Origin: Escherichia coli
Lineage (GTDB): Bacteria > Pseudomonadota > Gammaproteobacteria > Enterobacterales > Enterobacteriaceae
Length of the DNA stretch: 64,000 nucleotides
Direction: 5' to 3' (one strand)
Assembly (NCBI RefSeq): GCF_044647545.1
Contig: NZ_CP172818.1
A program made the translations under genes and the position numbers. Under the pieces are notes generated by a model. The model made no database searches and was not told the DNA's origin. It worked only from the letters and a program-made list of their open reading frames with translations. How positions within the stretch are numbered: the stretch's first letter is position 1; every line of letters starts with the position of its first letter. Positions 19,304-21,995 of this stretch are shown piece after piece.

Positions 19304-19589
19304 TAATTTGTCCTTTTCAGTCAGTGCAAAAGTCGAGTAAAAGGCATAACCTATCACTGTCATAGGTAAGAGCTTAGATCAGGTGATTGCCCTTTGTTTA
19401 TGAGGGTGTTGTAATCCATGTCGTTGTTGCATTTGTAAGGGCAACACCTCAGCCTGCAGGCAGGCGCTGAAGATACCAAAGGGTAGTTCAGATTACACGG
19501 TCACCTGGAAAGGGGGCCATTTTACTTTTTATCGCCGCTGGCGGTGCAAAGTTCACAAAGTTGTCTTACGAAGGTTGTAAGGTAAAACT

Positions 19590-19640
19590 TATCGATTTGA
19601 TAATGGAAACGCATTAGCCGAATCGGCAAAAATTGGTTAC
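19590..19640. promoter_or_regulatory. Putative OxyR-controlled ahpC promoter region
   Basis: AT-rich segment (gataatggaaacgcattagccgaatcggcaaaaattggttacc) about 40-90 bp upstream of ahpC; ahpCF is a classical OxyR target; site boundaries approximate. Confidence 0.35.
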
Positions 19641-19674
19641 CTTACATCTCATCGAAAACACGGAGGAAGTATAG

Positions 19675-20238
19675 ATGTCCTTGATTAACACCAAAATTAA
19701 ACCTTTTAAAAACCAGGCATTCAAAAACGGCGAATTCATCGAAATCACCGAAAAAGATACCGAAGGCCGCTGGAGCGTCTTCTTCTTCTACCCGGCTGAC
19801 TTTACTTTCGTATGCCCGACCGAACTGGGTGACGTTGCTGACCATTACGAAGAACTGCAGAAACTGGGCGTAGACGTATACGCAGTATCTACCGATACTC
19901 ACTTCACCCACAAAGCATGGCACAGCAGCTCTGAAACCATCGCTAAAATCAAATATGCGATGATCGGCGACCCGACTGGCGCCCTGACCCGTAACTTCGA
20001 CAACATGCGTGAAGATGAAGGTCTGGCTGACCGTGCGACCTTCGTTGTTGACCCGCAGGGTATCATCCAGGCAATCGAAGTTACCGCTGAAGGCATTGGC
20101 CGTGACGCGTCTGACCTGCTGCGTAAAATCAAAGCAGCACAGTACGTAGCTTCTCACCCAGGTGAAGTTTGCCCGGCTAAATGGAAAGAAGGTGAAGCAA
20201 CTCTGGCTCCGTCTCTGGACCTGGTTGGTAAAATCTAA
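19675..20238 (+). CDS. ahpC: Alkyl hydroperoxide reductase, peroxiredoxin subunit
   Basis: 187 aa; peroxidatic Cys motif FTFVCPTE. Confidence 0.97.
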
Positions 20239-20255
20239 TCGCAATCGCGTAATTA

Positions 20256-20282
20256 ATCGGGTGCTGCGGCACCCGATTTTCT
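20256..20282 (+). terminator. Hairpin plus T-tract immediately after ahpC (partial terminator/attenuator before ahpF)
   Basis: atcgggtgc ... gcacccgat stem followed by ttttctt. Confidence 0.5.
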
Positions 20283-20363
20283 TCCCCGCACCATGATGCA
20301 AGCTGCATCCAGGTAGCCGCAGAGGCCGCTTGCATGATGATGTTTAAAGCCCAGGAGATAAAC

Positions 20364-21929
20364 ATGCTCGACACAAATATGAAAACTCAACTCAAGGCTT
20401 ACCTTGAGAAATTGACCAAGCCTGTTGAGTTAATTGCCACGCTGGATGACAGCGCTAAATCGGCAGAAATCAAGGAACTGTTGGCTGAAATCGCAGAACT
20501 GTCAGACAAAGTCACCTTTAAAGAAGATAACAGCTTGCCGGTGCGTAAGCCGTCTTTCCTGATCACTAACCCAGGTTCCAACCAGGGGCCACGTTTTGCA
20601 GGATCCCCGCTGGGCCACGAGTTCACCTCGCTGGTACTGGCGTTGCTGTGGACCGGTGGTCATCCGTCGAAAGAAGCGCAGTCTCTGCTGGAGCAGATTC
20701 GCCATATTGACGGTGATTTTGAATTCGAAACCTATTACTCGCTCTCTTGCCACAACTGCCCGGACGTGGTGCAGGCGCTGAACCTGATGAGCGTACTGAA
20801 CCCGCGCATCAAGCACACTGCAATTGACGGCGGCACCTTCCAGAACGAAATCACCGATCGCAACGTGATGGGCGTTCCGGCAGTGTTCGTAAACGGGAAA
20901 GAGTTTGGTCAGGGCCGCATGACGTTGACTGAAATCGTTGCCAAAATTGATACTGGTGCGGAAAAACGTGCGGCAGAAGAGCTGAACAAGCGTGATGCTT
21001 ATGACGTATTAATCGTTGGTTCCGGCCCGGCGGGTGCAGCGGCAGCAATTTACTCCGCACGTAAAGGCATCCGTACCGGTCTGATGGGCGAACGTTTTGG
21101 TGGTCAGATCCTCGATACCGTTGATATCGAAAACTACATTTCTGTACCGAAGACCGAAGGCCAGAAACTGGCAGGTGCGCTGAAAGTTCATGTTAATGAA
21201 TACGACGTTGATGTGATCGACAGTCAGAGCGCGAGCAAACTGATCCCGGCAGCGGTTGAAGGCGGCCTGCATAAGATTGAAACAGCTTCTGGCGCGGTAC
21301 TGAAAGCACGCAGCATTATCGTGGCGACCGGTGCAAAATGGCGCAACATGAACGTTCCGGGCGAAGATCAGTATCGCACCAAAGGCGTGACCTACTGCCC
21401 GCACTGCGACGGCCCGCTGTTTAAAGGCAAACGCGTAGCGGTTATCGGCGGCGGTAACTCCGGCGTGGAAGCGGCAATTGACCTGGCGGGTATCGTTGAG
21501 CACGTAACGCTGCTGGAATTTGCGCCAGAAATGAAAGCCGACCAGGTTCTGCAGGACAAACTGCGCAGCCTGAAAAACGTCGACATTATTCTGAATGCGC
21601 AAACCACGGAAGTGAAAGGCGACGGTAGCAAAGTCGTAGGTCTGGAATATCGCGATCGTGTCAGCGGCGATATTCACAACATCGAACTGGCCGGTATTTT
21701 CGTCCAGATTGGTCTGCTGCCGAACACCAACTGGCTCGAAGGCGCAGTCGAACGTAACCGCATGGGCGAGATTATCATTGATGCGAAATGCGAAACCAAC
21801 GTCAAAGGCGTGTTCGCAGCGGGTGACTGTACGACGGTTCCGTACAAGCAGATCATCATCGCTACTGGCGAAGGTGCCAAAGCCTCTCTGAGTGCTTTTG
21901 ACTACCTGATTCGCACCAAAACTGCATAA
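20364..21929 (+). CDS. ahpF: Alkyl hydroperoxide reductase, flavoprotein subunit
   Basis: 521 aa from ATG at 20364 with SD aggag upstream; redox CHNC and CPHC motifs; FAD-binding GSGPAG. Confidence 0.96.
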
Positions 21930-21958: not shown

Positions 21959-21990
21959 AGCCGCCGGGGTCAAACCTGGCGGCTTTTTTA
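21959..21990 (+). terminator. Intrinsic terminator after ahpF
   Basis: agccgccgggg / cctggcggct stem followed by ttttttatt. Confidence 0.7.
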
Positions 21991-21995
21991 TTGCA

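Follow-up and report, generated by a model that had tools for sequence, protein, structure and literature searches.

Our analysis of the ahpC-ahpF spacer of Escherichia coli points to two RNA elements that act in series. We consider it likely that a leaky terminator-type hairpin just after ahpC (hairpin 1) stops part of transcription, and that RNase III then cuts a second, longer hairpin (hairpin 2) in the RNA, so that one operon yields more AhpC than AhpF. Hairpin 2 is an already published RNase III site; it was shown for the K-12 sequence, which is identical to ours from hairpin 1 through the ahpF ATG.

The spacer lies in a 64,000-nucleotide stretch of E. coli DNA (the window), whose dsbG-ahpC-ahpF region is of the E. 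coli type, with dsbG on the minus strand. A 325-nt query that spans the spacer found matches in 5422 of the 5426 complete E. coli genomes, at 95-100% identity. The features of the locus are as follows.

19675-20238, plus strand: ahpC coding sequence, 187 amino acids, with its TAA stop at 20236-20238 (open reading frame list and RefSeq annotation of 99-100% identical E. coli loci).
20239-20363, plus strand: ahpC-ahpF spacer, 125 nt.
20239-20254, plus strand: variable linker from the ahpC stop to hairpin 1, delimited by alignment of the 125-, 128-, 170- and 244-nt alleles.
20255-20278, plus strand: hairpin 1, a perfect 10-bp stem with a TGCG loop; terminator-like, and a candidate for protecting the 3' end of ahpC mRNA.
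20277-20283, plus strand: interrupted T-tract TTTTCTT after the core of hairpin 1, read from the sequence.
20289-20309, plus strand: left arm of hairpin 2 (CACCATGATGCAAGCTGCATC), which holds the published RNase III coverage minimum at 20306.
20310-20321, plus strand: apical region of hairpin 2, which varies in sequence and length between species and carries E. coli SNPs.
20322-20342, plus strand: right arm of hairpin 2 (GAGGCCGCTTGCATGATGATG), which includes GCTTGCATGATGATG.
20343-20363, plus strand: ahpF translation initiation region, made up of TTT, an A-rich stretch, the Shine-Dalgarno (SD) sequence AGGAG at 20353-20357 and a 6-nt spacer.
20364-21929, plus strand: ahpF coding sequence, starting MLDTNM (open reading frame list and RefSeq ahpF start).
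21959-21994, plus strand: terminator-like hairpin with TTTTTATT 3' of ahpF, at the operon end (promoter/terminator consensus scan).

Upstream of ahpC, in the dsbG-ahpC intergenic region, we also observed an Rfam match to the enterobacterial sRNA STnc70 (RF02069) at 19437-19530 on the plus strand, with 44.1 bits (gathering score 40; E = 2.6e-07). The PBC-28-3 motif described by Breaker's group, which lies upstream of ahpC-like genes in other bacteria, was considered and set aside as unrelated.

The RNA from 20239 to 20370 was folded with RNAfold, a check that the sequence-only reading of this spacer had proposed, and both hairpins formed, with a minimum free energy (MFE) of -46.4 kcal/mol (z = -2.48; 2 of 200 shuffles were as good). 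That reading had described a hairpin with a T-tract after ahpC, and we found both: the arms of hairpin 1, AATCGGGTGC at 20255-20264 and GCACCCGATT at 20269-20278, are complementary at 10 of 10 positions and are followed by TTCTTCCCC, a T-rich tail. Counted from the GC core of the stem (CGGGTGC/GCACCCG), the tail reads ATTTTCTT, with six Ts in eight positions after a 7-8-bp stem and a longest T run of four. The hairpin energy, computed on the identical core in locus L005, was -15.8 kcal/mol, and a perfect 10-bp hairpin turned up in 0.1% of shuffled spacers (2000 dinucleotide shuffles of the 125-nt spacer). Hairpin 1 has the GC-rich stem-loop of an intrinsic terminator; a consensus scan for promoters and terminators did not list it as a terminator, most likely because the maximal stem absorbs the first Ts. 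An Rfam search of 19400-20600 at permissive thresholds returned nothing significant in the spacer, where the sole hit was rncO on hairpin 1 (19.4 bits, threshold 43; E = 0.14).

Hairpin 2 had been noticed as an exact 12-bp inverted repeat. The coordinates of that repeat held and its exactness did not: the reverse complement of GCTTGCATGATG is CATCATGCAAGC, which agrees with the left arm CATGATGCAAGC at 11 of 12 positions and leaves a G·G mismatch at 20295/20336. A longer imperfect helix, between 20289-20309 and 20322-20342, is built around the 12-nt repeat; 17 of its 21 positions pair (81% complementary). RNase III substrates have a helix of about two turns (~20-22 bp) in which internal mismatches are tolerated, and the 17 pairs over 21 positions of hairpin 2 agree with this. 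Folded alone, hairpin 2 had an energy of -21.0 kcal/mol (z ~ -2.6). The right arm of the 12-nt repeat ends at 20339, 13 nt 5' of the AGGAG SD and 24 nt 5' of the ahpF ATG at 20364.

The suggestion that the inverted repeat serves in RNA processing was borne out by the literature, since mapped coordinates identify it with a published RNase III site in the ahpC-ahpF spacer. Table 1 of Gordon, Cameron and Pfleger (2017, mBio 8:e00128-17, PMC5371410) reports MG1655 position 639695, labeled 'Intergenic (ahpC-ahpF)', as a new RNase III site, the second-strongest among the new ones. The reads there numbered 4 per wild-type replicate versus 3,598 in the rnc mutant, a ratio of ~900 from RNA-seq that was not strand-specific (PMC5371410). 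In the same paper, an 'ahpFC' template was cut by purified RNase III in vitro (scored 'Y'), and RNase III cleavage positions were confirmed by 5' RACE and shown on Mfold structures with long double-stranded regions (PMC5371410). Using NC_000913.3 (ahpC at 638945-639508, ahpF start at 639753), we mapped 639695 to the C of aagcTGCatcc, that is, to window position 20306 in the upper left arm of hairpin 2. The published primers for the in vitro template map to 20165 and 20786, so the template contained both hairpins. An independent in vivo screen (Altuvia et al. 2018) observed cleavage in 9 of 10 of the Gordon targets, and its main text does not name ahpC; a 2022 paper counts ahpC among the positive RNase III targets of unelucidated mechanism.

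The same work reported that the ahpC half-life was ~14 min in the wild type versus ~6 min in the rnc mutant, and that ahpF stability was the same in both (PMC5371410). Its authors proposed that the hairpin remaining 3' of ahpC after cleavage is a barrier to exonucleases, and tied this to AhpC:AhpF stoichiometry. Furthermore, the 3,598 reads in the rnc mutant lie downstream of hairpin 1, so read-through past that hairpin is abundant. The sequence-only reading had suggested a partial terminator, and for hairpin 1 this agrees with its sequence, with the covariation described below and with this read-through RNA. Termination itself we infer, because the searchable literature yielded no direct 3'-end mapping, that is, no usable Term-seq, Rend-seq, SEnd-seq, Northern or monocistronic data for an E. 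coli ahpC terminator; that termination would be partial is suggested by the interrupted U-tract.

We then compared the spacer across genera, using AhpC-anchored loci with one genome per species. Further variants came from metagenomes, which were scanned for a right-arm pattern chosen so as not to match the Escherichia form; chance matches in that scan, including one 26-copy sequence, were removed by requiring an ahpF start. Two arrangements were seen. Hairpin 1 occurs on its own in Pantoea, Erwinia, Providencia, Brenneria, Arsenophonus, Mangrovibacter and 'Enterobacter sp. Ag1', usually as CGGGTGC-loop-GCACCCG followed by 4-8 T, ~20 nt before the ahpF ATG. Hairpins 1 and 2 occur together in Escherichia, Citrobacter, Enterobacter, Leclercia, Superficieibacter and several other genomes, with 84-92 nt from hairpin 1 to the ATG. 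Hairpin 2 thus looks like a module of ~65 nt that was inserted between an old hairpin 1 and the ahpF ribosome-binding site.

Pairing was counted on 42 distinct related sequences, 29 of which had been ascertained via the right arm of hairpin 2, which biases that arm. For hairpin 1, both sides change in 6 of the 7 core pairs across Enterobacterales and 97.3% of cells are paired, which is strong evidence of selection on its RNA structure. The compensatory changes include C-G/U-A at the base of the stem and U-A/C-G/U-G at position 5, with G·U intermediates. Judged from these alignments, hairpin 1 is an old, structurally constrained terminator-type hairpin. For hairpin 2, 79.5% of cells are paired; five pairs are invariant, five vary on one side and one varies on both sides, namely columns 67/86, which read U-A, U-G, C-G or G-C. 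True covariation is confined to this 1 of 21 pairs, with an RNAalifold covariation term of -0.06, so the comparative support for hairpin 2 comes from conservation. Its mismatches are also kept, the G·G in 42 of 42 sequences and the A·G in 41 of 42. For most measures, the observed pairing exceeded all 500 shuffles and the slid controls, and several lineages carry uncompensated left-arm mismatches. The alternation of U·G and C·G fits pairing in plus-strand RNA and not a DNA palindrome.

The two arms of hairpin 2 differ in how strictly they are conserved (20328-20345 versus 20289-20303 in the window). In 13 genomes found independently of the right-arm sequence, GCTTGCATGATGATG plus GTTT is nearly invariant, with ~2 variable sites; the left arm has ~7 in those genomes, including uncompensated U-to-C and G-to-U changes. 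The tail of hairpin 1 differs as well between spacers with and without hairpin 2. The longest T run after hairpin 1 averaged 3.6 where hairpin 2 is present (n = 57) versus 5.6 where it is absent (n = 8; Mann-Whitney p ~0.001, ignoring phylogeny), and relatives without hairpin 2 have runs of 6-8 T. A weaker U-tract alongside hairpin 2 is suggestive of a shift from termination to processing.

Beyond these relatives, the ahpC-ahpF spacers of Pseudomonas, Comamonadaceae, Snodgrassella and others also contain strong GC hairpins followed by T-tracts, reaching -37 kcal/mol with 7-8 T (loci L026, L028, L030, L032, L033, L041, L057, L076, L077 and L080). Their occurrence suggests that an intercistronic terminator may be a widespread design for the ahpC-ahpF operon.

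Within E. coli, four spacer alleles were compared (125 nt in the window, 128, 170 and 244 nt), and their differences are confined to the stretch from the ahpC stop to hairpin 1. The linker measures 16 nt in the window versus 135 nt in K-12 (MG1655, locus L207, 30-175), where it carries a 77-nt dispersed repeat that occurs at a median of 8 places per genome and that we take to resemble boxC. The linker is a hotspot of length variation: such elements, or REP-like palindromes, sit there in Citrobacter, Enterobacter, Superficieibacter and metagenome contigs (spacers inspected: window 20239-20254, L207, L007, L008, L013 and L018). The allele after the stop in the window (20236-20254, TAATCGCAATCGCG) had no exact match among the 5,426 complete E. 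coli genomes; the nearest alleles are of the O157:H7 type, a 3-nt indel apart and 99.1% identical. The E. coli SNPs that we inspected fall in the apical loop of hairpin 2 or in the linker, and none falls in the arms. One DH5alpha assembly (L004, NZ_CP045741.1) is without hairpin 2 and the first ahpF codons at ~430-560, and its ahpF is annotated 9 nt shorter; this absence reflects either an assembly error or a laboratory deletion.

Several observations concern the ahpF leader. In the MFE fold, a 7-bp inverted repeat, ATGTTTA/TAAACAT at 20340-20346 and 20359-20365, loops out the ahpF SD and engages the first two start-codon bases in pairing; it is present in Escherichia sequences only. The right-arm ATGATGATG is in frame with ahpF in E. 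coli, where a mechanical open reading frame from 20334 adds 10 codons. Most other genera hit TAA or run in another frame, so these codons are not a conserved extension or upstream open reading frame; they could cause errors in start-site annotation. A conserved small open reading frame in either arm of hairpin 2 was considered and rejected, because an SD is missing and both reading frame and stop codon change from genus to genus.

Other functions for hairpin 2 have to be weighed against processing by RNase III. In addition or instead, it might form a tandem with hairpin 1 as another weak intrinsic terminator or attenuator. A conserved U run does follow its closing pair directly (GTTT is invariant in the 13 independent genomes, and many genera have 4-6 T), and a crude hairpin-plus-T scan chose hairpin 2 as its top pick in L010, L011 and L013. 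However, E. coli has only three Us there, the consensus scan does not call hairpin 2, and the base of the helix is AU-rich and mismatched, unlike that of efficient terminators; the U/A-rich stretch is equally explicable as part of the ahpF ribosome-binding region, and we regard a tandem terminator as unlikely. We give a similarly low probability to control of ahpF translation through access to the SD and start codon in the unprocessed or processed leader, a role that the sequence-only reading had also raised. The short distance from the right arm to the SD (13 nt) and the conservation of that arm beyond what pairing needs would suit it, and some folds predict that the right-arm GCAUG, once freed by cleavage, pairs with CAUGC at the start codon. 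However, the SD and AUG lie outside the helix, and their unpaired probabilities shift without consistent direction and depend on the chosen ends; the Escherichia-specific pairing around the SD is not conserved in other genera; and ahpF mRNA is as stable in the rnc mutant as in the wild type. Translation data were not found, and we found no evidence that supports this claim.

Instead, the inverted repeat could work as DNA, either by providing ahpF with an internal promoter or by serving as a regulator's palindromic operator. The right-arm sequence TTGCAT is similar to a -35 hexamer, and sequence conservation in both arms would suit a protein-binding site; against this, the consensus scan showed no promoter-like site in the spacer, no -10 element lies 16-18 bp from TTGCAT, pairs 61/92 and 67/86 vary through U·G, which pairs only in plus-strand RNA, and the RNA is a demonstrated RNase III substrate. 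A DNA-level role is thus very unlikely. We also considered that hairpin 2 might be left over from a dispersed palindromic repeat (REP/BIME/boxC-like) and serve no specific function, given that the adjacent segment from the ahpC stop to hairpin 1 collects such repeats. A 60-nt hairpin 2 query was found at one place per genome (median 1) in 5421 of the 5426 E. coli genomes, whereas the K-12 insert, our positive control, had a median of 8, and hairpin 2 holds the same position across genera, making a remnant highly improbable. Membership of hairpin 2 in the REP, BIME or boxC families was rejected, as it lacks the many copies of such families and no further E. coli copies were found. Chance complementarity in a GC-rich spacer has next to no probability. 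A 12-nt inverted repeat with at most one mismatch occurred in 1.25% of shuffled spacers (2000 dinucleotide shuffles, 125 nt), so that on its own such a repeat is not rare genome-wide, but this explanation is refuted by the conservation of hairpin 2 across genera, by its invariant mismatch pattern and by the published RNase III biochemistry.

We thus return to leaky termination followed by RNase III processing as the likely mechanism. Hairpin 1 and its interrupted U-tract would probably stop part of transcription after ahpC. In read-through transcripts, RNase III cuts hairpin 2, as shown for the identical K-12 sequence in vivo and in vitro, and separates the ahpC and ahpF messages. The ahpC part would presumably be trimmed back to hairpin 1, which, as proposed in the literature, may serve as an exonuclease-resistant 3' cap, and this part is longer-lived after the cut; the ahpF part would keep a leader of ~40 nt, its stability unchanged. 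The net effect of one set of promoters would be more AhpC than AhpF. The idea that the spacer sets ahpC:ahpF stoichiometry is in this sense right in outline, with a consequence at the protein level that we infer.

Unequal expression of the genes in one operon can be set by leaky intrinsic terminators located between the cistrons. Hairpin 1 resembles this class in its GC-rich stem and its short or interrupted U-tract right after an abundant first gene, with a termination step that is probable here. The K-12 ahpC-ahpF site of Gordon 2017 is the same element as ours, as 639695 falls at 20306 inside the helix, and only the stretch from the ahpC stop to hairpin 1 differs, with 135 nt and a repeat insert in K-12 versus 16 nt in the window. 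In that paper (PMC5371410), the pflB-pflA spacer likewise has an intercistronic hairpin that RNase III cuts 3' of a terminator-type hairpin, and the upstream mRNA is likewise stabilized in the wild type versus the rnc mutant; it differs in locus and sequence, and its site lies beside the pflA promoter. The R1.1-type signals of phage T7 early mRNA (PMC9032294) are likewise imperfect, mismatched intercistronic hairpins whose cleavage frees mRNAs with a stable 3' hairpin. In T7, however, a single-strand cut leaves the cleaved hairpin itself in place as the 3' cap, whereas in ahpC-ahpF the proposed cap is the separate upstream hairpin 1.

A further scenario, which we offer tentatively as a possibility on the less likely side, concerns the history of the spacer. 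Insertion of the ~65-nt hairpin 2 in core Enterobacteriaceae may have replaced in part a strong ancestral terminator, whose U-tract then decayed, and the right arm (GCTTGCATGATGATGTTT) might have a second, sequence-specific role in the ahpF leader. Such a role is conceivable because this nearly invariant arm is retained in the ahpF leader after processing, whereas uncompensated changes are tolerated in the left arm. Candidate functions are enhancing translation, acting as a standby site, being bound by an sRNA or a protein, and contributing to a tandem attenuator.

Both AhpC and AhpF belong to the most abundant proteins of E. coli, and together they make up its principal scavenger of low-level peroxide. 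The AhpC ring, a decamer, works together with a dimer of AhpF (cited in PMC5371410), so one operon has to deliver the two proteins in unequal amounts. The spacer illustrates a route to unequal output after transcription initiation, in which a leaky terminator-type hairpin is followed by an RNase III site that uncouples the two messages and prolongs the life of the first. The K-12 mechanism is already in the literature, and what we describe is fine-tuning of an operon in textbook style, not a discovery. Our comparative additions are modest: an ancient, covarying hairpin 1; a clade-specific hairpin 2 with conserved mismatches; and a weaker U-tract where hairpin 2 exists. Overall, these additions could guide mutational work on the ahpC-ahpF spacer.
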